Below are positions 77-43,435 of a stretch of 43,435 bases of DNA, piece after piece. Position 1 is the first letter of the stretch. Each line of letters opens with the position of its first letter. The notes below the pieces were generated by a model that searched no databases, was not told the origin of the DNA, and saw only the letters and a program-made list of their open reading frames with translations. Position numbers and translations under genes: made by a program. The stretch covers positions 1 through 43,435 of the IMG/VR virus record IMGVR_UViG_3300017978_000327; one strand, written 5' to 3'. The stretch comes from a virus.

Positions 77-844
77 ATGAAAAAAACACTACTCGCAGCA
101 CTCGCACTATCCGGTATCGCCGGAATCGTAGCAATCAATTCAATGTCAGCGCCAAGGGTGGTTACATATGACCATCCTACCATCTCAGTAGTATCCACGC
201 AGGAACAACAAAAAATAGATATAACCACTGTCAGTGACGCATCAAGCGAAGTTGACGGCAAATGGCTAGGCTTGTGTCCTAAACGCTCCGTAGACAGCAT
301 ATCGTCATTTCGTAATACGGTCATGGGCGATCCTGTTCTAGTAAGAGAATATCAGGGTTTCCAGTGGAACAAGGCAAGAGAAGGCCAATTGCAGGAAGAA
401 ACGCTTGCCACAGTTACCCACAGGTCAGGTTCATCAATCCTGCCATCTTCAAAGCAAATAAAACTACCTGCCGGGGATAGATACATTACTGATGGTAATA
501 TCACTGTGCGTATGTTTTGCTGTAATGGAATCAGCACAATTGAAACTATTCCAGGCATAGTCGAAACACCAATCATCATCAATGTACCAAACTACTCAAA
601 TTTGTATCCTGTAACGCTCCCTGAATCATTTTATGGTGGTGGTAGTGGTTGGTACTCAGGTGGGCCAGGTATTTATCACAGCAGGGCATACGGTAATATT
701 TCAAGCAATATTGTATCAGGTGATGATATTGGAAGTGATGACACAAATGGAGGCAATACAAGTCCCGTACCTGAACCAAAGACACTATTACTTTTTGGTG
801 CTGGTTTAGTTGGTCTTGGATTGTTTAGGAAAAGGAATATTTGA
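77..844 (+). CDS. Secreted PEP-CTERM sorting-signal protein (exosortase substrate-like)
   Basis: AGGGGGA SD precedes the ATG. N-terminal Sec signal peptide MKKTLLAALALSGIAGIVAINSMSA. C-terminus VPEPKTLLLFGAGLVGLGLFRKRNI matches the PEP-CTERM pattern: PEP, hydrophobic helix, basic cluster, then stop. Confidence 0.85.
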   Translation: MKKTLLAALALSGIAGIVAINSMSAPRVVTYDHPTISVVSTQEQQKIDITTVSDASSEVDGKWLGLCPKRSVDSISSFRNTVMGDPVLVREYQGFQWNKAREGQLQEETLATVTHRSGSSILPSSKQIKLPAGDRYITDGNITVRMFCCNGISTIETIPGIVETPIIINVPNYSNLYPVTLPESFYGGGSGWYSGGPGIYHSRAYGNISSNIVSGDDIGSDDTNGGNTSPVPEPKTLLLFGAGLVGLGLFRKRNI

Positions 845-12027: not shown

Positions 12028-12044
12028 CTATTCAGGGGGAGCAA

Positions 12045-12418: not shown

Positions 12419-12421
12419 GAT

Positions 12422-12852: not shown

Positions 12853-12880
12853 TTGCACTATCATCAAAAGGTGCTATAGT
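12853..12880 (+). promoter_or_regulatory. sigma70-type promoter with extended -10, paralogous to P1
   Basis: TTGCAC (12853-12858), 16-nt spacer, TGcTATAGT (12872-12880). Shares AGTGCTTGCAC (12848-12858) with 19-29. Confidence 0.65.
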
Positions 12881-12925
12881 GCAGGCATAAGATGTTTTTC
12901 GACTAACTCAACAGGGGTGGATAAA

Positions 12926-13105
12926 ATGGAAAACGCAATAACATTCAGCATAAACAGGTATGATAAAGATGGCGATATTTTTGAGAATGGTATTTATCTA
13001 CATTTCGGAGACGTTTCTATAAAAATCGCTAACGACATAGCCGAGTTTAAAGTATTCTACAACGAAATAGAAGACATAATTAAAGAGATAGAGGAAAACT
13101 ATTAA
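12926..13105 (+). CDS. 59-aa strongly acidic protein, first gene behind promoter 12853
   Basis: ATG 12926 with CAGGGGTGG SD. MENAITFSINRYDKDGDIFENG...EIEDIIKEIEENY. Confidence 0.55.
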   Translation: MENAITFSINRYDKDGDIFENGIYLHFGDVSIKIANDIAEFKVFYNEIEDIIKEIEENY

Positions 13106-13121
13106 TTTTCACTGGGAACAA

Positions 13122-13292
13122 ATGCGTAAACCAACAAACTACCAAAGCAGGGGGAAAGTACGAGGCGAAAGAATCAGCCTACAACTTCCCCCTGATCTAC
13201 TCCGCTGGTTGCGTGACCGGCAGAAAGAGGACGGTTTGAGCAATAGTGCGCGGATTGTTAGAATAATTAGTGAACATTTGGGGGTGAAATGA
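13122..13292 (+). CDS. Ribbon-helix-helix (Arc/CopG-like) DNA-binding protein (below cutoff)
   Basis: Own translation: MRKPTNYQSRGKVRGERISLQLPPDLLRWLRDRQKEDGLSNSARIVRIISEHLGVK. This gives beta-strand ISLQLP followed by two helices. ATGA overlap with the next gene. Confidence 0.65.
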   Translation: MRKPTNYQSRGKVRGERISLQLPPDLLRWLRDRQKEDGLSNSARIVRIISEHLGVK

Positions 13293-13537
13293 AGCGACTA
13301 CTATCAGCAATAGCACTATCACTGCTTCTGGCATCATGCAGCAATTTTAACGACGACTTAGAGGTTGCGGTGCTAAAAAATAATGATGGGGAATATACCT
13401 GCAAAGTAAATGATATGTTAGCATGGTATGTTTTTGAAACTTACGAAGAAGCGGAATCACATTGCGCCGAGTGGAAAAAGAACATACTGGAAAGGAGAGA
13501 AAGACAAAGCCAGAAGTGGGAAAATGTGAGTAAATGA
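13289..13537 (+). CDS. Lipoprotein
   Basis: MKRLLSAIALSLLLASCSNF: signal peptide with lipobox LLAS-C. Confidence 0.75.
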   Translation: MKRLLSAIALSLLLASCSNFNDDLEVAVLKNNDGEYTCKVNDMLAWYVFETYEEAESHCAEWKKNILERRERQSQKWENVSK

Positions 13538-13698
13538 AAGTATCAATAATCATATTCGCATTTTATCTGGCAGTTGGAATAATCGAGCACATTTAGGGGT
13601 GAGTGATGGACGAAAACGACAAGTATTTGAATGACATGAGAGACGAACGGCCAGAATTGACATTTAGGATGATCGCTAATATTTACGCATAGGAAAAA

Positions 13699-14295
13699 AT
13701 GCAGCAGAAAATAGCCTGTCTTTTTGTTATGGCAGACAGCATATACAAGACCATTGATGGTTGCGATTGCTACGACGAGAAAAGAAATGCTCTGACGTAC
13801 AGTGGATACTATCCGGTTGTAGCTCATCCTCCATGCCAATTATGGGGAGCTTTGGCCGTTGTGAACTTTTCCAGATGGGGCGGCGATCACAATAAACCTG
13901 GCAATGATGGTGGTACGTTTAAGTTTTCCCTAGATACTGTGAGGCGATGCGGAGGAGTATTAGAACATCCCGCAAAATCAAGAGCATGGGCTAAGTATGG
14001 ATTGACAAAACCACGCGGTATTGGATGGAAAAAGTGCATTGACGGTGGGTGGGTCTGTGAAATATGGCAGTCTGCATACGGTCATAGGGCAAACAAAGCA
14101 ACATGGTTGTACTGCTTCGGTAATCCGATATCAGGGAAATGGGAAAGAAAATCTGGTTCTCACCAAGTCGGTTTTCAAGATCAAAGAGGCAAGGCAAGAA
14201 ATAAACCAACATTATCAAAAAAAGAAGCGAATCACACACCAGAAGACTTCGCACAATATCTTGTCGAAATTGCTAGGCAGTCTGCAAGATATTAA
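13699..14295 (+). CDS. Cytosine-C5-methyltransferase-like core protein lacking a recognisable SAM-binding motif I
   Basis: VAHPPCQLWG (PCQ, motif IV-like), GGVLEHP (ENV-like motif VI), SAYGHRANKATW (motif VIII-like) and LSKKEANHTPEDF (motif X-like LT.rE...fP.df). Only 198 aa, with no FxGxG. Confidence 0.6.
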   Translation: MQQKIACLFVMADSIYKTIDGCDCYDEKRNALTYSGYYPVVAHPPCQLWGALAVVNFSRWGGDHNKPGNDGGTFKFSLDTVRRCGGVLEHPAKSRAWAKYGLTKPRGIGWKKCIDGGWVCEIWQSAYGHRANKATWLYCFGNPISGKWERKSGSHQVGFQDQRGKARNKPTLSKKEANHTPEDFAQYLVEIARQSARY

Positions 14296-14577
14296 CTGAC
14301 TATAAACCAAAGTTTAATGTGTATATTTAATCGCCCGTCACTGTCCTCGGACAAACGGGCTAAGTCAGTGACAACCGGATAACGACCGGCAAATTGCATG
14401 TTTTTGTTATTGGAGATTTCCTATAATCTAGCCAAATGGAGGCAGCCATGACAAGACCGGTTAAAACCCGGTAGACCGTAAAACAGTAGATGTTGATGCA
14501 AAGCAAGCGGAGTCGAAAGCCCTGGCGTGGAGGGCAACCCATGAAGCGGCCAGGGCACGGTTTAATTGGGAGGGAAA
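14296..14577 (+). promoter_or_regulatory. 282-nt non-coding, structure-rich region
   Basis: No convincing ORF. Perfect TATAAT at 14422-14427 with a poor -35. Hairpins: GCCCGT/ACGGGC (14333-14360), ACCGG/CCGGT (14456-14472), and GCCCTGGC/GCCAGGGC (14519-14556) with inner GGG-CAA-CCC. Confidence 0.35.
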
Positions 14578-14775
14578 ATGAACCAGATACAATGCAAAGA
14601 ACTGTGTCAAGGAAACGTCTGCTCCTTGTCTCAGCTAATACCAGGTAAAAACGGTAGGAAGATGGTAGATGCCAAGTTCGACAAACAAAATGGCAAATGT
14701 TACGCCCGCGAGTATAGCAAACGGTACGGTCTTAACTGTAAATGCTATTCACCAGAAACAACGACAATACTCTGA
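14578..14775 (+). CDS. 65-aa basic Cys-rich protein
   Basis: ATG 14578 with GGGAGGG SD; the track start is TTG 14566. Confidence 0.5.
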   Translation: MNQIQCKELCQGNVCSLSQLIPGKNGRKMVDAKFDKQNGKCYAREYSKRYGLNCKCYSPETTTIL

Positions 14776-14794
14776 AATACCGAAAATGAGTAAC

Positions 14795-14823
14795 TTGTCA
14801 AATAAAAAATAATGAGGTATAAT
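14795..14823 (+). promoter_or_regulatory. Near-consensus sigma70 promoter ahead of the packaging/morphogenesis module
   Basis: TTGTCA (14795-14800), 17-nt spacer, TATAAT (14818-14823). Confidence 0.6.
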
Positions 14824-14879
14824 ATGGATCAGGTAATACTTTTAATTATTGAGTTTTTCGACTTCCTTTTTGGTTGGAT

Positions 14880-15044
14880 ATGAACGGGATAAGTTATGTA
14901 CTTATAGGAGTGTTAATTGGCACTGCGCTGAAACACTGGTCAGTAATGACGCTGTTTTGTGTTATACTTATATCAATAGTATCATTAGGTATTTTAGTGT
15001 GCTCTGTTGCTAAAATTGAGAAGAAATATGCCGGTAGAATTTAG
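14880..15044 (+). CDS. 54-aa two-TM membrane protein (holin-like; below cutoff)
   Basis: Own translation: MNGISYVLIGVLIGTALKHWSVMTLFCVILISIVSLGILVCSVAKIEKKYAGRI. Two hydrophobic helices plus a charged tail. It lies just upstream of terS, the lysis-gene position in P22-like genomes. Confidence 0.5.
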   Translation: MNGISYVLIGVLIGTALKHWSVMTLFCVILISIVSLGILVCSVAKIEKKYAGRI

Positions 15045-31432: not shown

Positions 31433-32617
31433 ATGAAAATGGTTTGGCTTTTTATCATAGCAATTTTCGGATACACTAGCTGCTTTGCAGAGATTGAACC
31501 AGTTACCACAGGGGTTGGTGTTTATGCCTCTGATTGGGCGACTATCCTCAATGCAAATGATGCTGAACTGGACGGTAACAAACTAACTTCCCTTACTATA
31601 CCATCCGGTAGCACTCTCCGGGCCACATTAAAAGATGCGTCTTATGTCGAAGTTGACCTATCTGGGATAGTTGGTACTGGTGGTGATGACCAGACAGCCT
31701 CAGAGGTAGTTTTTACCCCAAACGGGAGTATTGCCGCAACTGACGTTCAAGCTGCAATTCAAGAGGTTCGTGATGAAGCTGGTTCAGGGGCGAGTGAGTT
31801 AGATGCATTAACCGACGTCGGTGGAGATGGTACGGCAGGGTATGTACTTTATGACGACGGGGACGGTACGTTTAGTTTTGCTGCTGCGCCTGACTCAATG
31901 GTTTATCCTGGCGCAGGAGTACCCATATCGCTTGGTGTAACAGGATGGGACGACTCGCTAAGTTTCACTGAGCTTGTTCAATCCCTCCCCGGATCCGACC
32001 TTGCCACTCAGCTTGACGGCGAGGACTTGGCTCCTGGCTCAGTTACCATGCCTGCCACAGCAACACCTACCGCTTCTTTTAAAGACTCAGGTAGTTTGGA
32101 TGCAGATCAAACAATTGCGACCATCGGAGCTAATGCTACCACGGAAACAGCCGGTAGTGTTGAAAGTGATGTGTTGTTTTACAATAAATATCGGAGTGCG
32201 TCTGGTGTTTTTGATCGCTATATGTGGATGGATGGATCGGAGCAGACATTTAAGTTTGATGTGCCTATTTCTTCCGACGATCCAATATCCGCACCGATAA
32301 CCACAGCAACCGATGCTGACGCTCACACGCTTACCTGGGAAGAATATCATGGTGGCTCAGTCTTGGCAACCGGGGCAGGAGTTTATACCTTGCCTGCTGC
32401 TGCTGACGGTTTAACTGGATGCGTTGAGGCTGGTCAAGGTGTTGCTGCGATTATTCAACTGCTACCAGCTTCCGGCGATTATATCGTTTATGAGGGAGCA
32501 AGAGGCACAGCCGCAACATCGTTAAAGTCAAGTGGGGCTACTGGTGATAAGATTTGCTATACAGCCTACAACGCTGATGACTGGTATGTATCAACCTTTG
32601 GAACATGGGCGGAATAA
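31433..32617 (+). CDS. Signal-peptide-bearing tail-fibre-like protein
   Basis: GGAG SD. N-terminus MKMVWLFIIAIFGYTSCFA-EIE. Contains DDQTASEVVFTPNGSIAATDVQAAIQEVRDEAGSG, identical to a segment in the 36474 gene. Confidence 0.8.
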   Translation: MKMVWLFIIAIFGYTSCFAEIEPVTTGVGVYASDWATILNANDAELDGNKLTSLTIPSGSTLRATLKDASYVEVDLSGIVGTGGDDQTASEVVFTPNGSIAATDVQAAIQEVRDEAGSGASELDALTDVGGDGTAGYVLYDDGDGTFSFAAAPDSMVYPGAGVPISLGVTGWDDSLSFTELVQSLPGSDLATQLDGEDLAPGSVTMPATATPTASFKDSGSLDADQTIATIGANATTETAGSVESDVLFYNKYRSASGVFDRYMWMDGSEQTFKFDVPISSDDPISAPITTATDADAHTLTWEEYHGGSVLATGAGVYTLPAAADGLTGCVEAGQGVAAIIQLLPASGDYIVYEGARGTAATSLKSSGATGDKICYTAYNADDWYVSTFGTWAE

Positions 32618-33060
32618 TGAAGATATTATATTTTTTGATGGCTTTTATCCTGCTTGCTGCAAGTGCAAATGCGAGCCAGTGGTGTCAGTGGGATGGAACA
32701 CAGGGCCTTGAGTGTCAAAGTGATGCGCGGGGATATATCAAGATATCAGGTTTTCCGGTTAAAACTCCTGCAATAGCTAATGCAAGGGGATATTTCAAAG
32801 TCACCGACACAATCCCAGAATTAACAGCAACACAAAAGTTCGGTGCCATTGTCTGGGAGAAAGTAGGAAACGATATAAACCGGACTTACACCGTCGTTGA
32901 TAAAACCACGACTGAGAATGACGAAGACACGGCCAGAGCATTGAGCCTAGAGATGTACGTTGTTCTGAAATGGATGGTGGCCCAGGGTGTTATCAATCCT
33001 GCAACTGCACCAACAGCACTAAAAAACGCTTATCTTGCCAGACAGAGGATTGAAGAATGA
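32617..33060 (+). CDS. Secreted 147-aa protein, unknown function
   Basis: ATG 32617 (TAATG overlap). N-terminus MKILYFLMAFILLAASANA-SQW. Confidence 0.7.
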   Translation: MKILYFLMAFILLAASANASQWCQWDGTQGLECQSDARGYIKISGFPVKTPAIANARGYFKVTDTIPELTATQKFGAIVWEKVGNDINRTYTVVDKTTTENDEDTARALSLEMYVVLKWMVAQGVINPATAPTALKNAYLARQRIEE

Positions 33061-33773
33061 TAGTCCATCTTCTGATATTAGCAGCACTTTTACACGCTAG
33101 TGATTGCTACGGGATAGGTGCAAATTCTCCTGAAAAGTTTATTGGTCCGTCCGGCCCTACAACCTGTACCCTGACCGCGCAGGATTTTACCACTTATACG
33201 GAGCAGGACGCTTATTCGCAGATAACCGTAACGTCTGGCGCAATAGTTTATGAAGGAGCTGGAAACAATACCGCATATGTAAGGAAGGATTTCACGGCAG
33301 GACATTTCAACGGCGATTTTACCATGAAGTTTGAATGGACAAAATCGACCACCAATTCTGAAGAGTATGGTCGGGATTATAGCCCAATTCTGATTAATTC
33401 GACCGCTGAAGTTTACGGCAATACTTCAAACTTTGTGGCAGTTGAAAATTACAGATCAACCACAAACACTGTTTTCAGGATTGTGACAAACAACGGCGGA
33501 ACGGTCAGTTACTCGTCAGGTGTTGCAATAACCGAAGGGACAAATTACTTCCTGACTTTTAGCTATGACTCAGCAGAAGGAACGTACGGACGATACACCC
33601 TTGATGTTTATAGCGGGTCACACACAGGAACACTAATTGGCAGCGTGACAAGAGATGCCATAGAATCGGCAAGCTACCGTTATTTATATGCATATGATAC
33701 AAATAAGACAGGTAGTGCCTATGACAGTGAAGGAATCATTGCAAACTATGAGATCGGTCTATGTTTAGAATAA
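33057..33773 (+). CDS. Probable secreted beta-sandwich (lectin/jelly-roll-like) protein
   Basis: ATGA overlap. Hydrophobic N-terminus MIVHLLILAALLHASDCYG, a weaker signal peptide with no basic n-region. Confidence 0.65.
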   Translation: MIVHLLILAALLHASDCYGIGANSPEKFIGPSGPTTCTLTAQDFTTYTEQDAYSQITVTSGAIVYEGAGNNTAYVRKDFTAGHFNGDFTMKFEWTKSTTNSEEYGRDYSPILINSTAEVYGNTSNFVAVENYRSTTNTVFRIVTNNGGTVSYSSGVAITEGTNYFLTFSYDSAEGTYGRYTLDVYSGSHTGTLIGSVTRDAIESASYRYLYAYDTNKTGSAYDSEGIIANYEIGLCLE

Positions 33774-36010
33774 TCCTGGCATTGTGCCTCATTGTTCCGT
33801 CGATTGCTGGTGCTGCAACGTCAGTAACCAAGGATTCAATTACCTGGAATTTCAACGCTGATTACACAGTCGGTCAATTCGTCACTGGCGACTGGTACGT
33901 TGTGGCTCCATCTGGTTTGACTGTCACAAGTATCACCGAGACAAGTTCCTATGCTCTTGGCGGCTCGATGAAAAACCCTAACCCTGCTCTCAAGAAACAA
34001 GGGTACTTTGACAATGGCACTGACACCAACAAAGCAGCATATGATGCAACTTTAAACGTAGGCAGTTCGAGTATTTCGTTAGTTGCCGGCGATATGCTGA
34101 TAAGCACCACGATATATCCTTATTACGGGGTAGTTTATGATGGAGAAAAAAACTATACAATGATAGATGAGGCGGCGATCTTGACCGTTTTATCTGCTGC
34201 CCCTGCCTACGGCGCAGACTCCTTTCGACCTGGTATCTGTGACACGACAAGGACAGTATACAATTCGGCCAACATTGACTACGACCAATTAGCTGACGTA
34301 ACACCTGCCAGTGGTGCACCTAGTTTAAGTGCGGTTGAGGAACTCTTCGCAAGGCCGTGGATAGATCACTACGCTGGCCCTCCTGGCCGGTCGATTCATC
34401 CTCACAATAACATGCGGGATTATGGTGGAGAGATAAGCGTAGACATAGGCAACGCCGCCCTGCTGGTGAATACTAATCTTACAAACGCACAGAAAAAGCC
34501 GCTGACAGTTGGGCTTATTCAGATGGGTATTGACACATACAGCATGGTAACTCGTAACAGGAGATTGTTTGATATATCTCCCGCACATACAGTCGGTAGA
34601 AAATTCCCGGTTCTATTTGCCGCCAATGTTATGAACATTACGGCTTTTAAATCATTTATTCAGAGAACCGGACAATACATGACTGCAACCTGGGGTGTGC
34701 TCCCTAGTGATGCTTATGTGTTTGACGAGGATTATACGTCTTATGTTCGCAGTGAAGATGTCTCAGTAACTGCCACAGGTACTGCTCAGTATTTACCAGA
34801 TTATAACTATACTTCTGCTATGATCGGGATGCCTGAATGGTTTCATCACGATTTTACCAATCGGGCGAAGAGTAATGCCGCATGGACACCAGATCCTTAT
34901 CGGTTTCTTTCCAGTTCGACATATTATGGTGCGGCAACTGCAACTATCCTGATGGGGGCAAGGAGCCAGTGGAATAACCAGGCATACTTTGATTACATAT
35001 CCCGCTTGGCAGCGATTACCCGAGGTAGTGCCGATCCTAACGGTTTTACTGTTCCGCTTGAAGCATCAGGAAACAGTACCGCATATGGGAGTAATTGGGG
35101 TTTGGCTATGTGGGACTTGTACAGTGATAGTGTAACCGGCAATACTCCGCCTTCTCGAACCAATCTAGGCCCAACAAGCCTGCTGGCATCAGGAACAACC
35201 ACGGCGACACTGACAGTCGATGCGACCGACGCAGAAGGTAGTGTGGCAGGATGCAAGGCAAATACTACTGACGTTGCCTACGCTTCGATGTCCATTACCA
35301 TGACAGGATCACTTGGCACTTACACTTATGGTCTTACCGGACTGACTGATGGATCAAGTTATAATTATTATGTGCGCTGCATCGACGATGAGGGGCTGGC
35401 AAACACAACTAGTTCTTTGATAAGTTTTTCCGTTGATGAAGCAGTAGTGGATCAAGTGTGTGACGCTAACCATTACTGGTTGTGTGAGACTGATGAGACT
35501 TGTGTTGGAGCAGGACACTCTTACTATGACAGTTTTTGCCATAGCGCAACTTTACCGTCAAATGTGGTAGGCGGTAACCTCTTAACCAATCCGACTTTAA
35601 CCTGGGCTGGTGCAACCTTAACCGGATGGGATTTACCCTACTCAGGAGTAACAGCAATTTCCGGTGGTGGGGCTAAACTTACCGCGGGTGTAGCATGGCC
35701 ACCGGCTGCTATCAGGCAACGTATAGGCAGTATTGGTGATGGTAAAACTTATATAGTCGTTGCTGATGTAAGCGCATCGACAGATCAGCTTGAACTTTAC
35801 ACCACGGCAGAGGGGATTCAATATTTTTATGGACTCCCCAGGACTGTTATAACTGAATTTACTACTAACGGCGACAACTGGATGTATGTTCAGACGCATC
35901 ATACCGCTGTCAGGTATAACGATGTCTTGCATGTCGGGGTTTACGAGGTTCGGAATCGACCGGCAGGCTCTAATGTCGGTATGGGCTTTTCAGGCGTGAC
36001 GATACAATAG
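33761..36010 (+). CDS. Secreted multidomain carbohydrate-active-like protein (catalytic-size N-domain, FN3/Ig-like module, Cys-rich linker, CBM-like C-terminus)
   Basis: N-terminus MFRIILALCLIVPSIAGA-ATS. The module ...CKANTTDVAYASMSITM...YNYYVRCIDDEGLANTTS is shared with the 39046 gene. The C-terminal GGNLLTNPTLTWAGATLTGW... is like CBM4/9-type modules. Confidence 0.75.
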   Translation: MFRIILALCLIVPSIAGAATSVTKDSITWNFNADYTVGQFVTGDWYVVAPSGLTVTSITETSSYALGGSMKNPNPALKKQGYFDNGTDTNKAAYDATLNVGSSSISLVAGDMLISTTIYPYYGVVYDGEKNYTMIDEAAILTVLSAAPAYGADSFRPGICDTTRTVYNSANIDYDQLADVTPASGAPSLSAVEELFARPWIDHYAGPPGRSIHPHNNMRDYGGEISVDIGNAALLVNTNLTNAQKKPLTVGLIQMGIDTYSMVTRNRRLFDISPAHTVGRKFPVLFAANVMNITAFKSFIQRTGQYMTATWGVLPSDAYVFDEDYTSYVRSEDVSVTATGTAQYLPDYNYTSAMIGMPEWFHHDFTNRAKSNAAWTPDPYRFLSSSTYYGAATATILMGARSQWNNQAYFDYISRLAAITRGSADPNGFTVPLEASGNSTAYGSNWGLAMWDLYSDSVTGNTPPSRTNLGPTSLLASGTTTATLTVDATDAEGSVAGCKANTTDVAYASMSITMTGSLGTYTYGLTGLTDGSSYNYYVRCIDDEGLANTTSSLISFSVDEAVVDQVCDANHYWLCETDETCVGAGHSYYDSFCHSATLPSNVVGGNLLTNPTLTWAGATLTGWDLPYSGVTAISGGGAKLTAGVAWPPAAIRQRIGSIGDGKTYIVVADVSASTDQLELYTTAEGIQYFYGLPRTVITEFTTNGDNWMYVQTHHTAVRYNDVLHVGVYEVRNRPAGSNVGMGFSGVTIQ

Positions 36011-36017
36011 GAGCGAT

Positions 36018-36464
36018 ATGTTTAACTTAGGATTAGGACTGATGAGCGGCGGTAACGCAGGAATACCGAAACGTGCCCCAGGTGATTTCTCGGTAAGGTG
36101 GACAATAGTAAATGCTGAACCGCTTACAGAATACACAAGTAGACCAGTTAAGCTGATTCTTGCCAGTAACACTGCAATAGCAGTGATAGGGTCATCTTCC
36201 TACTCACTTAATGGTGGTGCATTTACAGTCGATGCAGGAACAGCGCATAATAACGATATTCTTCTGGTTAAAGACGACTCTCCTGATGTTTATACAACTG
36301 ACCTTGAATCACCTGAACAGACTGACGGTGGCGTGACAATAGGTATTGTTGCTTGTCCTTTTACGATAATAGCCAAAGTTGATCCTGCGACGCTTGTTTC
36401 GCAAATAGTATTCCAAGACGGTGACGGGGTATTAACCCAAGACGGGGATATATTAATCTTTTGA
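36018..36464 (+). CDS. 148-aa beta-rich protein without signal peptide
   Basis: ORF inside the operon. N-terminus MFNLGLGLMSGGNAGIPKRAPG is not signal-like. Confidence 0.6.
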   Translation: MFNLGLGLMSGGNAGIPKRAPGDFSVRWTIVNAEPLTEYTSRPVKLILASNTAIAVIGSSSYSLNGGAFTVDAGTAHNNDILLVKDDSPDVYTTDLESPEQTDGGVTIGIVACPFTIIAKVDPATLVSQIVFQDGDGVLTQDGDILIF

Positions 36465-36473
36465 GGAAATGAT

Positions 36474-39044
36474 ATGAAAAAACTATTTTTAGTGGTTGCC
36501 CTTGTTGCCGTTTGCGGTTCTGCTTATGGGGCAGATAAGCGAGTTACTGACCTTACCGCACAGACGGAAGCAATAGCAAGCGGCGATCTTCTTATGAGTG
36601 TTGACGTTAGTGATACAACGGACCATGCCACTGGTTCATCAAAGAAGGCTACATATACCCAAGTTGGCACTTATTTTGCGACTTTATTTGCTCCGATTGC
36701 AAGTCCAACATTTACAGGAACTTTATCTGCTCCTGAAATAATTGCAACAGGATCAGGCGGATTGAAGTCGGGTGTAGCAAGTTCTCAACAGGGTGCATTG
36801 ACGCTTTATTCAAATGTCAATCCCTATGCTTTCGGGTTGACCCCCGCAGCAACTCCCGCAGAAACATTTTCTTTCAAGGCTCCTGCTGCACAGGCAACGG
36901 CTGATGGTGCTTTGCTAACTGTAATAGATCACACTACCGGGCAATTAGGATATACTGCTCCATCGAGTTTAGCGGACGGAACAGGGACCGACGACCAGAC
37001 GGCAAGCGAGGTTGTTTTTACTCCTAATGGTTCAATAGCGGCAACAGATGTACAGGCTGCAATCCAAGAGGTTCGTGACGAGGCTGGTTCTGGCCACACT
37101 GAGGTTACACTTTCGACCGATCTTGGCAATAATCTTCTTGGTTTGTCTACTCAGACGATCTCACTTGATAACCAAAATGCCAACATAGTTTTCGCTGGCC
37201 CGACTACCGGAGCAGCAGCCGCACCTACTTTCAGGAGCTTGGTTGACGCTGACATTCCGAGCGCAATAGCGAGGGACACTGAGATTATAGCGGCTCCGAC
37301 AGATGCAACCATTTCAACTTCAGCGGTGGCAACCAATGATGCGAGCACCAGTAAACATGGCTGGCTGATGATGGCTACCGCTCCTGCCGCCGGACTTAGA
37401 AATATTCTTGCCATTGATAATGCGGAAACGGGATATAAAAACGCTGCACTGTTTGACACTACATCTCCTGAGTCACAGGCATTCGGTGATTCAGCGGCTG
37501 TTGGTTCGGCAATGACTGCGGCAAGGCGAGATCATAAGCACGCTATGCCAGCGGCCCAGACTCCAACAAGCCTTAACCTGCTTATTGGTACGAACACTCA
37601 AGCTTATGATGCTGACCTTGACGACCTGGCAGACGGTTCTTTAACTGGTACAAAACTTGGAATTTCCGATGCTGGAAACTATTTCACTGGAACCAATGCC
37701 GAGACAGTTTTGCAGGAACTTGGTGCAAAACTCCCCACTGGTTCAGATGGCACATATGGTCTTCTCTTGAACAACAACACTACCAGAACACCTACCGCAA
37801 CAAGTTATGAATTGTACCCTGATGGAGGGGTATGGAAAGCAAATACAAACGGAACGGAAAACACAATAGCTATAGGCCCGTTAGCAGGTCAGGTATCATT
37901 TACTGGCCCGACAACGGCTAGGGCTTATGCTCTTCCTGATGCGGCTGCAACGATTCTATATTCTGGTGGTGCTCTTGGAACTCCTTCAGGGGGAACTCTT
38001 ACTAACGCCACAGGGCTTCCAATAGCCGGGGTTACTGGTTGGGGTACAGGAATCGCTACGGCGCTTGCAATTAACACGGGGTCGGCTGGTGCACCAGTAT
38101 TGTTTAATGGAGCAGCAGGAACACCTTCATCTCTCAACCTTACAAATGCTCTGGTAAATTCAGGAACATCTCTCCCTGGAACATGCACCGCCGGGGCTTT
38201 ATTCATTGACACCGATGCTGACACGAACGGGCAACTATATTCATGTGTGGCAACAAACACTTGGAAAGATGTTGATGATGACGGTGGGGCGGGTGGAATG
38301 GCAACCACTGATATTGATACCAGCTCTGAATTATCCACAATCCTGACTGACGAGGTTGGAACAGGTTACTCGGTGTTCAACACTGCCCCAACTTTTGTAA
38401 CCTCTATAGCTCCGACAACAGCAGATGGTGCAACCATAGGTACCGCCGCTCTTGAGTGGTCTGATATTTACCTTGCAGCCGGTGGGGTGATTAATGGTGA
38501 GAATGGACAGGAGAATAAAATAACCAGTTCTGCAACAGGTTGGAACTTCAACCTTCCTATTGGTAACTATCAAGCAAATGACCCAGACGTAGCGGCAGAA
38601 GGAAAGATGGGTTGGGATGCAAATGGTGATTGGCTGAGAATCCATGACGGCACCAACCAAGTAGCTGTAGCCAGAAAACTTGAATGCTATGATGCAACAG
38701 TTGTCAGTCCGAACGATCTGGCTGATGCAACTCGTGATGCTTTTCGGATGTGGCAGAACAACAGCGGAATGAGTTTTGTTGTCACATCATGGACTGCTCA
38801 AAGTGCGGCTGACAACACCGATATAAACATTGAGACAACCACGAACACTGGCGGAACTAATGCAACCGTTGATGCGGTTTCAATAACCACTGACGGAACC
38901 GGCCTATTTTATGCTTCTGATGCCACGATTACCGCTGGAACTATAACAACCGGAAGTATAATCTGGCTAGACTTCGACGATACCGACGATCCAGGTTGGG
39001 TATCGGTCAGCGTGTGTGGTTACTATAACGGAGATGTCAACTAA
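36474..39044 (+). CDS. Signal-peptide-bearing large tail-fibre-like adhesin
   Basis: N-terminus MKKLFLVVALVAVCGSAYG-ADK. Fibre-type motifs: APTFRSLVDADIP, AARRDHKHAMP, CTAGALFIDTDADTNGQLYSCVATNTWKDV. Shares the 35-aa module with the 31433 gene. Confidence 0.8.
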   Translation: MKKLFLVVALVAVCGSAYGADKRVTDLTAQTEAIASGDLLMSVDVSDTTDHATGSSKKATYTQVGTYFATLFAPIASPTFTGTLSAPEIIATGSGGLKSGVASSQQGALTLYSNVNPYAFGLTPAATPAETFSFKAPAAQATADGALLTVIDHTTGQLGYTAPSSLADGTGTDDQTASEVVFTPNGSIAATDVQAAIQEVRDEAGSGHTEVTLSTDLGNNLLGLSTQTISLDNQNANIVFAGPTTGAAAAPTFRSLVDADIPSAIARDTEIIAAPTDATISTSAVATNDASTSKHGWLMMATAPAAGLRNILAIDNAETGYKNAALFDTTSPESQAFGDSAAVGSAMTAARRDHKHAMPAAQTPTSLNLLIGTNTQAYDADLDDLADGSLTGTKLGISDAGNYFTGTNAETVLQELGAKLPTGSDGTYGLLLNNNTTRTPTATSYELYPDGGVWKANTNGTENTIAIGPLAGQVSFTGPTTARAYALPDAAATILYSGGALGTPSGGTLTNATGLPIAGVTGWGTGIATALAINTGSAGAPVLFNGAAGTPSSLNLTNALVNSGTSLPGTCTAGALFIDTDADTNGQLYSCVATNTWKDVDDDGGAGGMATTDIDTSSELSTILTDEVGTGYSVFNTAPTFVTSIAPTTADGATIGTAALEWSDIYLAAGGVINGENGQENKITSSATGWNFNLPIGNYQANDPDVAAEGKMGWDANGDWLRIHDGTNQVAVARKLECYDATVVSPNDLADATRDAFRMWQNNSGMSFVVTSWTAQSAADNTDINIETTTNTGGTNATVDAVSITTDGTGLFYASDATITAGTITTGSIIWLDFDDTDDPGWVSVSVCGYYNGDVN

Positions 39045-39045
39045 T

Positions 39046-40734
39046 ATGAGATACTTAATTGCGATATTATTGGTCCTGATGTGCTCTGTTGCATGGGCCA
39101 GGACTGTTACGGTTGGGCAGGCTCCGGTTGTTGCTGGTGGACCGGAGATTACATATGTCTCAACTGGCACAGTAGCTGGAGGTGCAACTCCGGCAGCAAT
39201 CACACCTGGAATACCATCGTCAATCCAGGCCGGAGACTTACTCGTTCTCGCTGTTGAAAACAAATACCCGACAAACTCACCGTCTACTCCGACAGGATGG
39301 ACGCTTTCAAGTAATTGCCAGGGTTCGGGTGGGGCGAGTACAGCGGCGGCTGACTCAGGGACGGTTTATTCAACAGTTTTCTGGAAAAAAGCAATTGGCA
39401 ATGAATCAGGGACCCAAACAGTAACAATCACATCTGCCAACTCCAGCCGGGGTGCTATCGTCGCGTATCGACCAACATCCGGTTATGAGATTACTCCGGT
39501 CTGCACGAACGGGGCATACTCCCACGGGTCAACGACTTCATGGAGTGCAACCGGGGCAGACGATCCAGGTTTTGCGGCTGGCGATTGGGCAGTCGTGGCT
39601 AGTGCCAACAACTCTGATCTTGCGGCATCGTTCAGTTCCCAAGCGATGACCGCAACCGGTTATACGTTTGGCTCGATGACTGAGCGTGTGGATTCTGTAG
39701 AGTCTCAAGGAAACGATTCTTCATTAGTTGTTGCGGATTTTGCCTCAGGGACTGGAACCAGTTCAGATGTACCGACGTATACCATGACCGGGGCGACGAA
39801 TGGCACGAACACTCCGGCAGGATCTAGCGTAATCGTAAGGTTGCGACCAGTAGCCGATACCACGGCACCGACAATTAGCGCGGCTTTACCTTCTGCGAAC
39901 GTATCATGTCCGGAAGACCCGACAGCCGTAACCATCGGAGTCACTACTGACGAAGCCGCGAATTGCAAATGGGATACTTCAGACACCACTTACGAGCTGA
40001 TGGCAAATACTTACAGCACCGGCCAAGGCGCATCAGTGCATACCACTTCAATTGGCAATCTAGCTTGTGAGGCCACGGCTACCAGATACACACGATGTGC
40101 TGACACACTTGGCAATGCCAATAGTTCCAGCACCACCCACAGTATCACGATGGCGGCATTAAGTACCGGGAATAGTGATTCGTTTACCGGAACAGATGAT
40201 ACATTGCTGGCAACTCATGATAGTAATTGGGTTAACGCTAACAGTACATATACTGTAGCCGGTTTTGAGCTTTACTCAAACACCGTAAGGCCGGTAGGAT
40301 CATACGACACCGCAGGGGCCAGATACAATATTAGTACATCTGATATTTCTCAGGCTGTCTATAAGGGTGGGCGATCAGGTGATCAAACGACCAGCTATGC
40401 CGCCGTTAGAATGAACGGTACATCTCTTGGGTATAGCTGTATTTTTTCTGGTGCAAGCGGTGGGAACTGGACTATTGTTGATGTTCAGAAAGACGGGAAT
40501 TGGGTAGCCCAAGCAATAACCGGAGGCACCTGGGCGCAATCAGCAGACCACACGATGAGAGTACGAGCTTCTGGGACGGGCGGTACGGTAACAGTTTACT
40601 GCTCTGTCGATGGCGGATCGGAAGGAAGCTACGCCGATTCTACCGCTCCATATACAACCGGTTTACCTGGATTAGTCGGCTATGCTGACGGAACGATGAT
40701 AAACGCAACATTCGATGATTGGACGGATGAATGA
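39046..40734 (+). CDS. Secreted protein with FN3/Ig-like module and lectin-like C-terminal domain
   Basis: ATG 39046, 1 nt after the previous stop; the track start is GTG 39016. N-terminus MRYLIAILLVLMCSVAWA-RTV. Module ...ANCKWDTSDTTYELMAN...RYTRCADTLGNANSS. Confidence 0.75.
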   Translation: MRYLIAILLVLMCSVAWARTVTVGQAPVVAGGPEITYVSTGTVAGGATPAAITPGIPSSIQAGDLLVLAVENKYPTNSPSTPTGWTLSSNCQGSGGASTAAADSGTVYSTVFWKKAIGNESGTQTVTITSANSSRGAIVAYRPTSGYEITPVCTNGAYSHGSTTSWSATGADDPGFAAGDWAVVASANNSDLAASFSSQAMTATGYTFGSMTERVDSVESQGNDSSLVVADFASGTGTSSDVPTYTMTGATNGTNTPAGSSVIVRLRPVADTTAPTISAALPSANVSCPEDPTAVTIGVTTDEAANCKWDTSDTTYELMANTYSTGQGASVHTTSIGNLACEATATRYTRCADTLGNANSSSTTHSITMAALSTGNSDSFTGTDDTLLATHDSNWVNANSTYTVAGFELYSNTVRPVGSYDTAGARYNISTSDISQAVYKGGRSGDQTTSYAAVRMNGTSLGYSCIFSGASGGNWTIVDVQKDGNWVAQAITGGTWAQSADHTMRVRASGTGGTVTVYCSVDGGSEGSYADSTAPYTTGLPGLVGYADGTMINATFDDWTDE

Positions 40735-42404
40735 AATATACTATAGCTCTAATATTATTGATATTATCAACGACTCAGTCTAATGCTGCAACTTACTATG
40801 TATGCGGTTCTGCATCATCCTGCAATTCTGGGAACGGTTCTCCTTCCGGGTGGTCAACCGGGGCCAGTGGGAATAGCGGGCTGTCAAAGGCCGCGCCAAA
40901 GGCAACCATCGCTCAGGGCATTGCATTATTGACTACCGGCGCGGGCGATACTCTAATAATTGGAAACGGTAATTATGTAAATCAGCAGATCCTTACAGCT
41001 CCATCCGGCACTTCCGGGGCGTACACTAAAATTCATGCCGAGAATACAGGTGGTGCCGTGATTGACATGAGTTCAGCAACTGCGTGGGATAGTTGCGGGC
41101 TGCGTACAGGCGGTGATGATCATCATATAGAGTTTGATGGTTTAAAAATTCGAGGAAATCCGGCTCTGGGGGATACAAACGGTGTCGTCGAAATTTACGG
41201 TAGCTATATTAAACTGTTCAGGATTGCCGCATATGGTCAAGGGGAGGTTGGCACCAACTATGTATTTGCAACGATGTCTGGCTCTCATCATATTCTTATA
41301 GAGGAGTGCTGGGTTTGGGGTGGAGGTAGGTATAAATTTTTGGCATATGAATCATCCTATGTGGTCATGCGCCGTTGTGTTTCCAGGCACGATTGGAACG
41401 ATGACGGCGGAGGTGATGGTAGATCGCAACAGGCTTGTTTCACTAACTATGATTCATCTAATACTTTGTTCCAGAATTGTATTGCTATTGATTCCGGCGC
41501 TGTCGGAACACCACAGACTATGTACGGTGCGTGGTGGGACGAGAATAACGCGGCTGTATTGAAAACTGGTAAAATTACAAGTAGTATAATTCTGAACATA
41601 AGGACCAATTTTGCAGGAATGCATGACAAGCCCAGTGGCAATAGAACCATTGAGAATAGCATCATTTGGGATTCTAACGGTGGATGGGGTACTGCTGATT
41701 ATTATGGATATAGTGCGCCAACAATAAGCATCAACAAGATGACAATTGGGCAGATTATAGGAAATTACGACAGTGGTTGGCCGATTGCCCAGGGGACTGG
41801 CGTTAAGTATGGAGTTAGCGGTGGTTCAACAACTGTGACCGACTCTATTATTACAGGTGCGGCTGATTATGGTTTGGCTGAATGGGTAACTAACGATTAT
41901 ATCTCCTTTTATAATAACGGGGCCAACTACGGCGGATTAGAACATACGCCAACAGCCGGGGCGCACAACATAACAAATATCAATCCACTGACAAATTGCC
42001 TAAAATACCTCCCCCGCATCGAGTCAGCAAACTGCTCATTATACACGGCTGGGTCAAGTGGTGGACGGATCGGGGCGGAGATACTTTACAAGCATGGCAC
42101 GTCCGGGACACTGTATGGTGAAACTGGGTACGACACGTTGACGAGCGAACCGCTCTGGCCGTTTCCGAATGAAGATTTAATTAAGGCAGATTACGCTACT
42201 TATTCAGCTCATAGCATATCAGGAGCCAGAGGATTTGCGGCAACAGGAAATCAACTTGACGGGGCAACTCCAATTACCTTGACATCTTATATCTGGGAGT
42301 ACCTGGGCAATGAGATGCCTGCAGAGATTTATGGAGAGGAAGAGCCAGTCGCAGTAGCACCACTAACAGGCGGAAGTTGCCCAGGCTGCACGATCACTCA
42401 ATGA
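40731..42404 (+). CDS. Secreted right-handed beta-helix protein (polysaccharide lyase/hydrolase-like)
   Basis: ATGA overlap. N-terminus MKYTIALILLILSTTQSNA-ATYYV. YYVCGS...SKAAPKATIAQGIALLTTGAGDTLIIGNGNY is the typical N-cap of DUF1565/pectate-lyase-fold proteins. Confidence 0.75.
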   Translation: MKYTIALILLILSTTQSNAATYYVCGSASSCNSGNGSPSGWSTGASGNSGLSKAAPKATIAQGIALLTTGAGDTLIIGNGNYVNQQILTAPSGTSGAYTKIHAENTGGAVIDMSSATAWDSCGLRTGGDDHHIEFDGLKIRGNPALGDTNGVVEIYGSYIKLFRIAAYGQGEVGTNYVFATMSGSHHILIEECWVWGGGRYKFLAYESSYVVMRRCVSRHDWNDDGGGDGRSQQACFTNYDSSNTLFQNCIAIDSGAVGTPQTMYGAWWDENNAAVLKTGKITSSIILNIRTNFAGMHDKPSGNRTIENSIIWDSNGGWGTADYYGYSAPTISINKMTIGQIIGNYDSGWPIAQGTGVKYGVSGGSTTVTDSIITGAADYGLAEWVTNDYISFYNNGANYGGLEHTPTAGAHNITNINPLTNCLKYLPRIESANCSLYTAGSSGGRIGAEILYKHGTSGTLYGETGYDTLTSEPLWPFPNEDLIKADYATYSAHSISGARGFAATGNQLDGATPITLTSYIWEYLGNEMPAEIYGEEEPVAVAPLTGGSCPGCTITQ

Positions 42405-42571
42405 CCTGGCTAAAAGACCTATTCAGCGCAAACGTACAGGCAGACAAAACGACGCAGCGCGTTGAATTGTGGTTGAATGTTGGGAACTTAATTAAAAGGA
42501 TTGTGAGCAGGCCGGAACGTGATGGCAGGGAGCAAAAACCCGATAAAGTCTACACTAGAGGTGAGAAATGA
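42401..42571 (+). CDS. 56-aa hypothetical protein
   Basis: ATG 42401 forms an ATGA overlap with the previous stop. The track ORF extends to 42377. Confidence 0.45.
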   Translation: MTWLKDLFSANVQADKTTQRVELWLNVGNLIKRIVSRPERDGREQKPDKVYTRGEK

Positions 42572-42807
42572 AACAGTGGTTTTTTAGGTTCTGGGATTTG
42601 CATGGTGATAGGACAATATTTCTAACTGGTGCAACTCTTATGTCCCTGCTTCTGATAGCGGTTGGTGTCTCGTTTGAGGGATTTGAGGATCTTGTTAGCG
42701 CAGGAAAGACTACATTGGTTATGATCCTTGGTATTCTCGTAAACAAGGCCAGATCCCCAGAGGCTAAGTTTGATGAGAAAGAAGTTGACGCACAGGTCAA
42801 CGGATAA
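42568..42807 (+). CDS. Two-TM membrane protein, holin-like
   Basis: ATGA overlap. IFLTGATLMSLLLIAVGV and TTLVMILGILV are hydrophobic helices. Charged C-terminal tail. Confidence 0.55.
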   Translation: MKQWFFRFWDLHGDRTIFLTGATLMSLLLIAVGVSFEGFEDLVSAGKTTLVMILGILVNKARSPEAKFDEKEVDAQVNG

Positions 42808-42832: not shown

Positions 42833-43165
42833 GTGATAGATACATTCGTGAAACTTGTATCAGCAAAAGCAGTGGAGCATTGGGAAGGGATAGCAACTCT
42901 TGTCGTTATTGTGTTGTACGGAAGAAACGATTACCGGGTAACGAAACTTGAAAGAGAAGAGGCAAAAAGGACTACTGCTGACTGTGACAGGCTGATGCAT
43001 AGTTGCGGATTACTCAACAATGAACGTCACAATGAAGGCAGAAGAGAACTTGACGGTATTGTAAATGCACTCAATCGGTTGGGTGATGCGGTGCGAGTTG
43101 ACATAAAAACCACGAATGATAAATTGGACAAGTTGATAGACTATATGATTGAGGCAAAGAAATGA
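42833..43165 (+). CDS. Single-TM plus coiled-coil membrane protein (spanin- or antiholin-like)
   Basis: GTG start with AAGGAA SD. GIATLVVIVLYG is a TM segment, followed by a charged helical region. Confidence 0.45.
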   Translation: MIDTFVKLVSAKAVEHWEGIATLVVIVLYGRNDYRVTKLEREEAKRTTADCDRLMHSCGLLNNERHNEGRRELDGIVNALNRLGDAVRVDIKTTNDKLDKLIDYMIEAKK

Positions 43166-43184: not shown

Positions 43185-43388
43185 ATGTGGAAACTATGGA
43201 TAGTAGCCAGCCTATGCGACAATTGTGGAAAATGTGAAGAAACTATCCCTTGGCTGCTATCCCAACACGATCAGACGATTTATATTAATATATCAAGAGC
43301 AAATGCTGATGAGCTGCTGGCCGATGCCAAGGAAATTGTCAAAAACTGCCCACAGGGAGCGGCAAGACTCCGGTGCGCTAATAGATAA
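43185..43388 (+). CDS. Single-cluster [4Fe-4S]/[3Fe-4S] ferredoxin
   Basis: ATG 43185 with AAGGGAG SD. MWKLWIVASLCDNCGKCEETIP...AKEIVKNCPQGAARL aligns by eye with Thermotoga maritima Fd [20 protein letters not shown]...AKDAADSCPTGAISV, giving CxxCxxC ... CP. Confidence 0.7.
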   Translation: MWKLWIVASLCDNCGKCEETIPWLLSQHDQTIYINISRANADELLADAKEIVKNCPQGAARLRCANR

Positions 43389-43435
43389 TAATGAATAAAG
43401 TGCTTGCACAATAGTAAAACTGGTGTTATTATTCC
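43381..43435. repeat. Second copy of the 55-nt terminal repeat
   Basis: Identical to 1..55. It contains the last 8 nt of the ferredoxin CDS and promoter P1. Confidence 0.95.

Follow-up and report, generated by a model that had tools for sequence, protein, structure and literature searches.

Predicted Sec signals on a cassette of fibre-, lectin- and beta-helix-like proteins behind the tailspike of an uncultured P22-like phage

Why would a tailed phage put signal peptides on a whole set of fibre-, lectin- and depolymerase-like proteins? In the common view, tailed phages synthesise the proteins for host recognition and depolymerisation in the cytoplasm, and the phage proteins that are exported are usually single small exclusion, lysis or virulence factors. 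The question is raised by the IMG/VR virus record IMGVR_UViG_3300017978_000327, of which the complete stretch of 43,435 nucleotides (nt) was analysed (here called the window). An operon of eight open reading frames (ORFs) on its + strand, at 31433-42404, follows the tailspike gene after a 36-nt gap, and seven of the encoded proteins begin with signal-like N-termini. This operon feature is real, statistically solid and recurrent, and export is the best supported, though unproven, reading of its sequence. With roughly even confidence we propose that the operon encodes a late-expressed, Sec-exported, non-virion set of glycan-binding and glycan-degrading proteins that would act on the envelope or on exopolysaccharide (EPS).

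A signal-bearing operon in a complete phage genome

Signals were scored by a heuristic n/h/c analysis based on the 10-residue hydrophobicity maximum, the apolar run, K/R in the n-region, the residues at -3/-1 and the lipobox, with Sec/signal peptidase I substrates defined by a short, usually basic n-region, a hydrophobic h-region of 7-15 residues, small residues at -3/-1 and no lipobox. All seven signal proteins have a hydrophobicity maximum of 2.9-3.5, -3/-1 residues from A/G/S/C, and an h-region free of acidic residues; six of them combine K/R in the n-region with an apolar run of 13-20 residues. The exception is the 33057 protein (proteins are named by the first position of their ORF), which has no K/R, an apolar run of 8 and a His that interrupts the h-region. 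When the same rule was applied to every window ORF of at least 80 amino acids (aa), 7/8 operon ORFs were signal-like vs 2/38 others (Fisher p=5e-6), and of the two others one is a true lipoprotein and one probably a false positive. The claim of the sequence-only reading of this DNA, that seven of the eight proteins carry Sec signals, is therefore upheld, with 33057 as the weak case. Lipoprotein signals were ruled out, since a lipobox is absent in all seven proteins, and signal-arrest-release-type anchors were judged unlikely, as the h-regions are strongly hydrophobic and AxA-type sites follow.

Furthermore, AlphaFold2 models show residues 2-16 of the 39046 protein and residues 2-10 of the 33761 protein as an isolated helix, after which comes a linker of low confidence. 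The signals are kept in the closest homologues of the 856-aa fibre (36474), the 749-aa protein (33761) and the beta-helix protein (40731), and in the homologues of the 749-aa protein the mature N-terminus ATSVTKDSITW is kept at the predicted cleavage site; because of this conservation in three proteins, with a mature N-terminus starting where cleavage is predicted, the operon signals look functional. The Cys content of the operon proteins is twice (2x) that of the virion proteins and the Cys count is even in 5/7 mature proteins, and such paired cysteines fit periplasmic folding. Side by side with this, a signal sequence of the form MRYLIxxxLxL... is kept in the middle cassette gene of four phages (window 39046, L001 12249, L002 12633 and L014 8428-9069; L numbers denote comparison loci), and the mature L001 and L002 proteins are barely alignable with the 39046 protein (BLASTP E=5e-4, mostly in the signal).

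The operon makes up ~25% of the phage genome (11 kb). Its genes meet at TAATG (32615), at ATGA (33057, 40731 and 42401) and in a 13-nt overlap at 33761, the other gaps being 7, 9 and 1 nt, and Shine-Dalgarno (SD)-like purine runs lie ahead of most starts. All eight ORFs, with the coordinates, N-termini and overlaps described earlier, were reproduced from the sequence; as for true starts further downstream, which the sequence-only reading had named as a possible objection, the public gene calls of the Joint Genome Institute (JGI) and Logan keep identical operon starts. Both independent assemblies (JGI and Logan) also give the same gene order. Overall, the block has a higher GC content than the remainder of the window, and GC at third codon positions (GC3) is the same as in the remaining genome (p=0.15). 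Together, the GC3 match and the agreeing assemblies identify the block as long-resident phage DNA, neither freshly acquired nor mis-assembled. Foreign DNA as the cause of the higher GC was ruled out, since GC3 is unchanged and the excess sits at codon position 2, from Ala/Gly/Thr/Ser-rich proteins. Promoter and terminator scans of the operon gave nothing above chance, which fits read-through from the late genes, and this is probably how the operon is transcribed.

The window is a complete phage genome in a circular assembly, in which the last 55 nt repeat the first 55 and virtually every gene lies on the + strand. It contains a P22-like virion module with small and large terminase, portal (phrog_156, E=1e-109), scaffold, major head protein, gp4-like and gp10-like connectors and ejection proteins. 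The tailspike that closes this module, which is context and stands outside the exported set, has no signal peptide (N-terminal hydrophobicity maximum 1.29) and, with its head-binding domain (Table 1), is the bona fide signal-less P22-type tailspike that it had been taken for. The early region (1-15000) has genes of lambdoid type for recombination and replication: Erf, SSB, NinB, a RusA-like resolvase, helicase, primase and a Lar-like protein. Neither an integrase nor a repressor was found in the window, and the phage apparently carries a P22-like virion module on a non-temperate backbone. Megablast of the window against GenBank phages gave no DNA similarity, and a pattern method gave no IMG/VR relatives of the 27765 protein. 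The eight genes listed in the sequence-only reading all exist; what it had missed is the circular genome (55-nt overlap) and, across the junction, the PEP-CTERM gene at 77-844.

Table 1 Features of the operon, the tailspike and the flanking genes in the window.
Feature	Position	Strand	Remarks
Signal-peptide fibre-like protein 1, 394 aa	31433..32617	+	predicted cleavage CFA/EIEP
Signal-peptide small protein, 147 aa	32617..33060	+	predicted cleavage ANA/SQW; Cys pair at residues 23/33
Signal-peptide protein, 238 aa	33057..33773	+	weakest of seven signals
Signal-peptide multidomain protein, 749 aa	33761..36010	+	phrog_34846 E=1e-41 (function-unknown PHROG)
Signal-less protein ahead of long fibre, 148 aa	36018..36464	+	C-terminus IVFQDGDGVLTQDGDILIF
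Signal-peptide long fibre-like protein, 856 aa	36474..39044	+	predicted cleavage AYG/ADKR
Signal-peptide protein with two ConA-like jelly rolls, 562 aa	39046..40734	+	predicted cleavage AWA/RTV
Signal-peptide right-handed beta-helix protein, 557 aa	40731..42404	+	predicted cleavage SNA/ATYY
P22-type tailspike, 672 aa	29378..31396	+	Pfam Head_binding PF09008 E=1.3e-19, many tailspike PHROGs
56-aa ORF	42401..42571	+	translationally coupled (ATGA) to beta-helix gene
79-aa protein, two hydrophobic segments	42568..42807	+	sequence only; no family match
110-aa protein, N-terminal membrane segment, then charged coiled-coil-like region	42833..43165	+	sequence only; no family match
Ferredoxin-like small ORF	43185..43388	+	Pfam Fer4_13 22.2 bits, under 24.5 cut-off
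PEP-CTERM protein, 255 aa, N-terminal signal, C-terminal sorting tail VPEPKTLLLFGAGLVGLGLFRKRNI	77..844	+	PF07589, TIGR02595

Folds and relatives of the encoded proteins

The 40731 protein, product of the last operon gene, is recognised by Pfam Beta_helix (PF13229, 27.3 bits vs a cut-off of 25.9) and has 196 homologues with 35-54% identity over nearly full length, which carry PF13229, PF22842 and PF14592. Many of them are chromosomal (Myxococcota, Verrucomicrobia, Omnitrophica and one Tahibacter isolate), and these cellular proteins have an N-terminal signal and very often a MYXO-CTERM tail. Among phages, the 40731 protein is 31% identical over its full length to the last cassette gene of L001, and tblastn against GenBank phages returned one unannotated match. 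At the C-terminus of the window protein (42371-42401) we noted GGSCPGCTITQ, a Cys-x-Gly-Cys remnant where the cellular homologues have the GCGC of MYXO-CTERM; the membrane helix and Arg cluster of MYXO-CTERM are lacking. A general link of the cellular homologues to EPS loci was ruled out, with 1/4 of those examined in such a location.

Two proteins of the operon are fibre-like. The 31433 protein had no Pfam, PHROG or GenBank phage match, and in its C-terminal head it shares 50% identity with P0033, a metagenomic fibre that carries a signal. It has a 52-aa module in common with the 856-aa fibre; as this module is 81% identical in protein and only 77% in DNA, a recent duplication of the two fibres was ruled out. 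The 856-aa fibre is a mosaic that includes paired cysteines and an 83-aa HxH module ending in RRDHKHAMP, HxH being a motif of the kind seen in phage fibres. Its 181 mosaic homologues are all metagenomic: most of the closest ones have MKK-hydrophobic-AxA signals, and the more remote ones, with Mtd_N, Collar or S74 domains, are normal tail fibres that lack a signal. The C-terminal heads of the fibres are mosaic and fast-changing, and tblastn of the fibre and the 31433 protein against GenBank phages gave nothing useful. In none of the eight operon proteins did Pfam recognise a PF09008 head-binding or other attachment domain.

Between the 749-aa protein and the long fibre lies the 148-aa protein (36018), which has neither a signal nor a family match. 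Its C-terminus recurs in small signal-less ORFs upstream of other fibres: window 36018-36464 ends in IVFQDGDGVLTQDGDILIF and L034 6976-7116 in ILLENGNGILLEDGSGVFLMES, and L001 9852-10007 resembles them more loosely (VVFGGEATTFGGEDVIW). The L034 ORF, of 46 aa, stands upstream of a fibre triad without signals, so that the motif accompanies fibres with and without signals; the small ORFs may encode an adaptor or assembly factor.

The 39046 protein consists of a domain that we call NKYP (aa 30-276) and a LamG-like domain (aa 372-562), modelled by AlphaFold2 with a mean confidence (pLDDT) of 83. Foldseek against PDB retrieved legume lectins, the PilC lectin module, GH16 and CBM66, all marginal (E 4e-4 to 1e-2, TM 0.24-0.54), and against BFVD many actinophage minor tail proteins, with stronger matches (E 1e-9 to 1e-4). 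The NKYP family (motif NKYP.N.P.TP.GW) comprises 2167 representative clusters in metagenomes and had no tblastn match in 50,697 GenBank phage records, so that fold comparison is the only link to the actinophage minor tail proteins. Among the top members with a domain hit, 85/127 have it right at the N-terminus, which leaves no space for a signal, and 16/127 are signal-like. The catalytic ExDxxE motif of GH16 is absent from the 39046, 33057 and 33761 proteins.

In the 749-aa protein (pLDDT 68), a confidently modelled beta-sandwich and helical domain (aa 17-460) is followed by an Ig/FN3-like stretch, a Cys-rich linker and a C-terminal jelly roll like that of a carbohydrate-binding module (CBM), for which Foldseek gave only weak CBM matches (E ~2e-3). 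It has 20 homologues, most of them with signals, one of which carries a dockerin at the C-terminal end. The 32617 protein had no family match. Neither Pfam, PHROG, NCBIfam nor PDB sequences gave a match for the 33057 protein, and profile comparison showed no resemblance to the lectin-like family. Searches of PDB by sequence and by profile with the 40731, 33761, 39046 and 33057 proteins returned nothing meaningful. The evidence at the fold level points to carbohydrate binding by operon proteins. Compared with the guesses made from the sequence alone, the fibre-like character of 31433 and 36474 is borne out by modules common to many fibres, signal-less ones included, and the lectin-like character of 39046 is supported at the fold level by marginal PDB matches; the beta-helix guess holds for 40731 only, and the CBM-like and FN3-like guess for 33761 drew weak matches only.

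The block runs on across the circular junction to a PEP-CTERM protein (77-844), and the independent Logan assembly L005 of the same phage gives the order 856-aa fibre, 562, 557, 56, 79, 110 and 255 aa. PEP-CTERM proteins of Gram-negative bacteria are exosortase substrates and have been connected with the formation of exopolysaccharide and flocs. The window protein scores 26.9 bits with PF07589 (cut-off 20.7) and 22.3 with NCBIfam TIGR02595 (cut-off 16), and its tail, VPEP-KTLLLFGAGLVGLGLF-RKR, together with the N-terminus shows the signal, PEP motif, hydrophobic helix and basic cluster. The pattern method gave no IMG/VR relatives of this protein, and no report of a phage-encoded PEP-CTERM protein was found in the literature.

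Recurrence of the cassette and competing readings

Homologues of the last three operon genes, each with a signal, are grouped in the operon order in L001, a podovirus-like contig with a pectate-lyase-type tailspike, and in L002, a lambda-like siphovirus that encodes a tape measure, a GpJ-like protein and an ordinary fibre without a signal. In both, the cassette comes after genes for small membrane proteins, right where the late region ends, in L002 beside an integrase. A temperate siphovirus (L003/L004) has signal-bearing fibre-like, Mtd_N and 905-aa beta-helix proteins between tail hub and lysis-like genes; one signal-bearing gene matches tail-fibre PHROGs and its neighbour a tail-fibre-assembly PHROG. 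Putative lysis genes adjoin the cassettes in L001-L004, and an integrase lies near those of L002 and L003. Moreover, a blind scan of all fetched loci for runs of signal-bearing ORFs around fibre homologues found seven in L006, three plus one nearby in L008 and four in L014. The L006 run (6964-14484 of IMGVR_UViG_3300025322_000050) is the longest seen, with seven signal-like ORFs of 128, 1252, 260, 490, 98, 110 and 96 aa. The architecture is thus not confined to P22-like phages, as the signal cassette is also found in the lambda-like siphovirus and other uncultured phage contigs.

In P22-like relatives whose gp10 is 41-49% identical, the tailspike is followed directly by endolysin-like and holin-like genes and signal-less fibre-like ORFs, with no operon; because these relatives do without it, the operon is, as judged by gene content, accessory. 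Signal-less fibre-like ORFs after the lysis genes were seen in the relatives L043 (19172-21326) and L044 (15521-17081), and accessory fibre loci in this late-region position, with or without signals, may be general in the P22-like clade.

A different arrangement was found in the HK97-like contig L034, where beta-helix-like, fibre and GH16 proteins are encoded side by side between capsid and connector genes, all of them signal-less. On the sequence evidence, the fibre/lectin/beta-helix triad is a functional unit that comes either all with or all without signals. Such a coordinated switch speaks for functional signals that set a shared compartment, and the signal-less L034 triad shows that cytoplasmic synthesis of these parts is possible, plausibly for use as particle appendages.

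The exported set would consist of two binders resembling trimeric fibres, a lectin-type protein with two ConA-like domains, a protein that joins a CBM to an enzyme-like domain, a beta-helix protein of the pectate-lyase type and two small proteins. Late in infection, the operon would be read through from the virion genes; host Sec would then export the pre-proteins and signal peptidase I would cleave them, and the mature proteins would fold and assemble into oligomers in the periplasm, with disulfides possible between paired cysteines. They would subsequently bind and cut an envelope or exopolysaccharide glycan of the infected cell that serves as a barrier or receptor, and which they might reach by host secretion or exosortase routes or upon lysis. 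As a benefit, progeny could get out of the matrix without being lost to debris, and phages that arrive late could be hampered. We rank this reading first because of the conserved signals, the cell-surface relatives and the PEP-CTERM neighbour, because the phage has a complete P22-type adsorption apparatus without spare sites and the operon proteins have no attachment domain, and because the operon is accessory and found in different tail morphotypes.

Several points weigh against export to a non-virion location. Late co-transcription, export, cleavage, non-virion location, glycan substrates and benefit are all inferred, export and cleavage from sequence, and no outer-membrane route, catalytic residues or substrates were identified for the operon proteins. 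Every module type has signal-less relatives in tail or head structural modules: fold comparison links the 39046 protein to actinophage minor tail proteins, the signal-less NKYP proteins that could be placed lie inside siphovirus tail modules, the L034 triad lies among virion genes, and the N-domain of the 749-aa protein, for which Foldseek gave no PDB match, is 30.7% identical (E=1e-31) to a signal-less gp45-like protein of cluster J mycobacteriophages, encoded by the last tail-block gene directly before lysin A. In addition, the N-terminus of the L034 fibre (MSDTKISDLT...SKKLT) matches the mature N-terminus of the 856-aa fibre, and this match could be a retained docking motif. Only one of the four cellular beta-helix homologues examined lies in an EPS biosynthesis cluster, and a host search via the fibre module in genome contigs led only to metagenome-assembled genomes (MAGs) from discordant phyla and so to no host call. 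The export inference of the sequence-only reading is thus favoured by the conserved signals, the anchored beta-helix relatives, the PEP-CTERM neighbour and the signal-less tailspike, and weakened by modules that are of the receptor-binding type.

Virion appendages matured in the periplasm are a possible, though distinctly less probable, alternative. Here the proteins would be exported, folded oxidatively and joined to cytoplasm-built particles at holin opening or lysis. All modules belong to receptor-binding-protein types and have relatives without signals in structural modules, the heads are mosaic and fast-changing as in receptor-binding proteins, and the operon lies directly behind the tailspike, the usual position of tail-fibre genes; in L003/L004 the signal-bearing genes directly follow the tail hub gene, with the PHROG matches to tail fibres and their assembly given above. 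Furthermore, the mature N-terminus of the 856-aa fibre equals that of signal-less fibres, the signal-less small protein with its conserved C-terminal motif could be a particle-side adaptor, and P22 heads can be completed in vitro by free tailspike. However, the operon proteins have no recognised attachment or head-binding domain, the signal-less tailspike already fills the six tailspike sites of a P22-type tail, the operon is missing from P22-like relatives, and the cassette occurs in both podovirus and siphovirus backgrounds. The relatives of the beta-helix protein are, moreover, cellular surface proteins and not virion proteins, and no precedent for such an assembly route was found in the literature. 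A specific form of it, two-compartment assembly, in which exported fibres, lectin modules and depolymerase join the particles at the holin breach and the signal switch of the triad reflects two alternative routes, strikes us as doubtful on the sequence evidence.

Alternatively, the exported proteins might stay on the surface of the infected cell, anchored there or attached to its glycans next to the PEP-CTERM protein, where they would mask or destroy receptors (exclusion, progeny protection) or tether uninfected hosts before the burst, a suggestion that we make tentatively and with low probability. A PEP-CTERM protein is by definition surface-sorted, the cellular beta-helix homologues are membrane-anchored via MYXO-CTERM, and the L002 and L003 cassettes stand beside an integrase, the classic position for lysogenic conversion. 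Signal-bearing exclusion proteins near receptor-binding genes are well known, e.g. T5 Llp, lambda Lom and Bor, although an operon of 11 kb is far larger than any known exclusion system. That a signal plus a phage-like fibre can form a surface adhesin is illustrated by the mosaic adhesive trimer (MAT) fibres of Bdellovibrio (PMC10769870). Against retention on the surface, the operon proteins (77-844 aside) show no recognisable anchor, neither lipobox nor C-terminal sorting tail nor beta-barrel; no integrase or repressor was found in the window and the genes run in one direction, which makes expression in a prophage state unlikely, and no promoter of the operon's own stands out.

The sequence-only reading had also considered an exported lysis arsenal. 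On this view, one or more signal proteins would supply the lysis enzyme that is missing, be it muralytic or envelope-degrading; Sec would export it, and the neighbouring holin-like and spanin-like proteins would release it. The premise of that reading was sound, as Pfam, PHROG and NCBIfam scans of every sizeable window ORF recognised no endolysin and the endolysins of the P22-like relatives have no homologue here. The operon abuts a holin-like (42568) and an i-spanin-like (42833) ORF, the L001-L004 cassettes likewise adjoin putative lysis genes, and Sec-exported endolysins exist, e.g. Lys44 of fOg44. Yet the same three scans detected no peptidoglycan-hydrolase domain in any operon protein, nor was such a fold found, and the folds that were identified are carbohydrate-binding or pectate-lyase-like; L003 has the cassette plus a separate endolysin-like gene, and in the window the 13699 protein (phrog_12600) and a two-transmembrane 56-aa ORF occupy the canonical P22 lysis position. 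We therefore consider this idea very unlikely. Finally, an artefact of mis-called starts or mis-assembled host DNA, which the heuristic scoring, the weak 33057 signal and the higher overall GC of the block might suggest, is hardly credible given starts fixed by tight coupling and SD-like sequences and matched by independent gene calls, homologues that share the signals, agreement of the JGI and Logan assemblies on a circular contig, and a GC3 no different from the rest of the genome.

Nearest known systems and flanking genes

No multi-gene cassette of signal-bearing receptor-binding-type proteins was found described in the literature, in line with the earlier statement that no system of this architecture has been described, and the nearest known systems each share only some of its features. 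Like P22 gtrABC, Sf6 oac and lambda lom/bor, the operon comprises variable, non-essential, envelope-directed genes that follow the receptor-binding gene where the late region ends; many products of these accessory loci have signals or membrane segments, and in the clade of the window phage, too, the content varies among relatives. Unlike them, with their one to three small prophage-expressed genes for O-antigen modification or outer-membrane proteins, it has at least eight genes in 11 kb, encodes fibre-, lectin- and depolymerase-like proteins, belongs to a phage in which no integrase was found and is apparently read with the late genes. Of the marks of a moron, neither an integrase or repressor in the window nor a promoter or terminator excess was found; the L002 and L003 cassettes lie near integrases.

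Known phage depolymerases are made in the cytoplasm without signal peptides, as virion parts or surplus soluble copies. The operon resembles these polysaccharide depolymerases, whether tailspike-borne or soluble at lysis, in its beta-helix, CBM-like and lectin-like modules and its probable surface-glycan targets, and it differs in that the whole set carries Sec signals, which a survey found on only 5% of prophage carbohydrate-active enzymes (PMC13507307). The MAT fibres of the predatory bacterium Bdellovibrio bacteriovorus likewise combine a signal with a long tail-fibre-like protein and mosaic, exchangeable heads outside the cytoplasm; their genes are chromosomal, and they have a conserved ~130-aa beta-rich post-signal domain and often a C-terminal S74 chaperone (PMC10769870). 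In contrast, the window proteins are phage-encoded and have lectin-like and beta-helix partners, and S74 (PF13884) and the ~130-aa domain were not seen, by Pfam scan only. Predicted signal peptidase I signals have also been described in genes of Porphyromonas gingivalis phages, for which host secretion and surface modification were proposed (PMC10367356); those are scattered single genes in Bacteroidota prophages, whereas the fibre/lectin/beta-helix cassette is contiguous.

Among cellular systems, the 40731 protein is a full-length homologue (35-44% identity) of MYXO-CTERM beta-helix proteins, from which the phage copy differs by being phage-borne and by lacking the C-terminal anchor. By description, it can also be likened to WceF of Pantoea stewartii, an exported tailspike-like EPS-modifying enzyme (PMC7949094), as one of its homologues is found in an EPS cluster. 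The 77-844 protein, with its signal and a canonical tail above the curated cut-offs, resembles PEP-CTERM/exosortase substrates such as the floc-forming PepA; unlike PepA and other PEP-CTERM proteins it is phage-encoded, and only its sorting tail matches named families.

If the operon proteins are exported, phages would manipulate or dismantle the sugar matrix of the host from outside the cytoplasm, before or at lysis, with a bearing on biofilm and floc ecology, on superinfection and on searches for soluble depolymerases. If they are instead mounted on virions, a new branch would have to be added to current ideas of how tailed phages assemble. The occurrence of the same triad with and without signals offers a simple test case, and the PEP-CTERM protein of the phage adds a minor novelty and hints at the host. 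In this context, the contigs L010-L019, which contain the fibre module, are binned to Melioribacteraceae, Nitrospirae, Fibrobacteres, Dehalococcoidia, Falkowbacteria and even Nitrososphaeria MAGs; they are probably mis-binned viral contigs and unreliable for host calls.

Downstream of the beta-helix gene (Table 1), the 79-aa protein (42568) is, by its predicted segments, a holin-like candidate and the 110-aa protein (42833) an i-spanin-like candidate. Elsewhere, just upstream of TerS at the canonical P22 lysis position, we observed the 198-aa protein at 13699-14295, which belongs to a well-populated PHROG of unknown function (phrog_12600, E=1e-66), and the 56-aa ORF with two hydrophobic segments at 14874-15044; these may form an unrecognised endolysin and holin pair. 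An 82-aa ORF in the early/middle region (13289-13537) has a textbook lipobox (LLLASC) and does not adjoin an i-spanin-like gene, and it could encode an exclusion lipoprotein rather than an o-spanin. A 4Fe-4S Cys-motif ORF similar to the ferredoxin-like ORF of the window is present in the unrelated L001 (9642-9851), likewise beside membrane-protein genes and the signal cassette. Lastly, a promoter-like site with an extended TG (TGCACA-16-TATTAT) lies at 43405-43432, just upstream of the PEP-CTERM gene across the circular junction.

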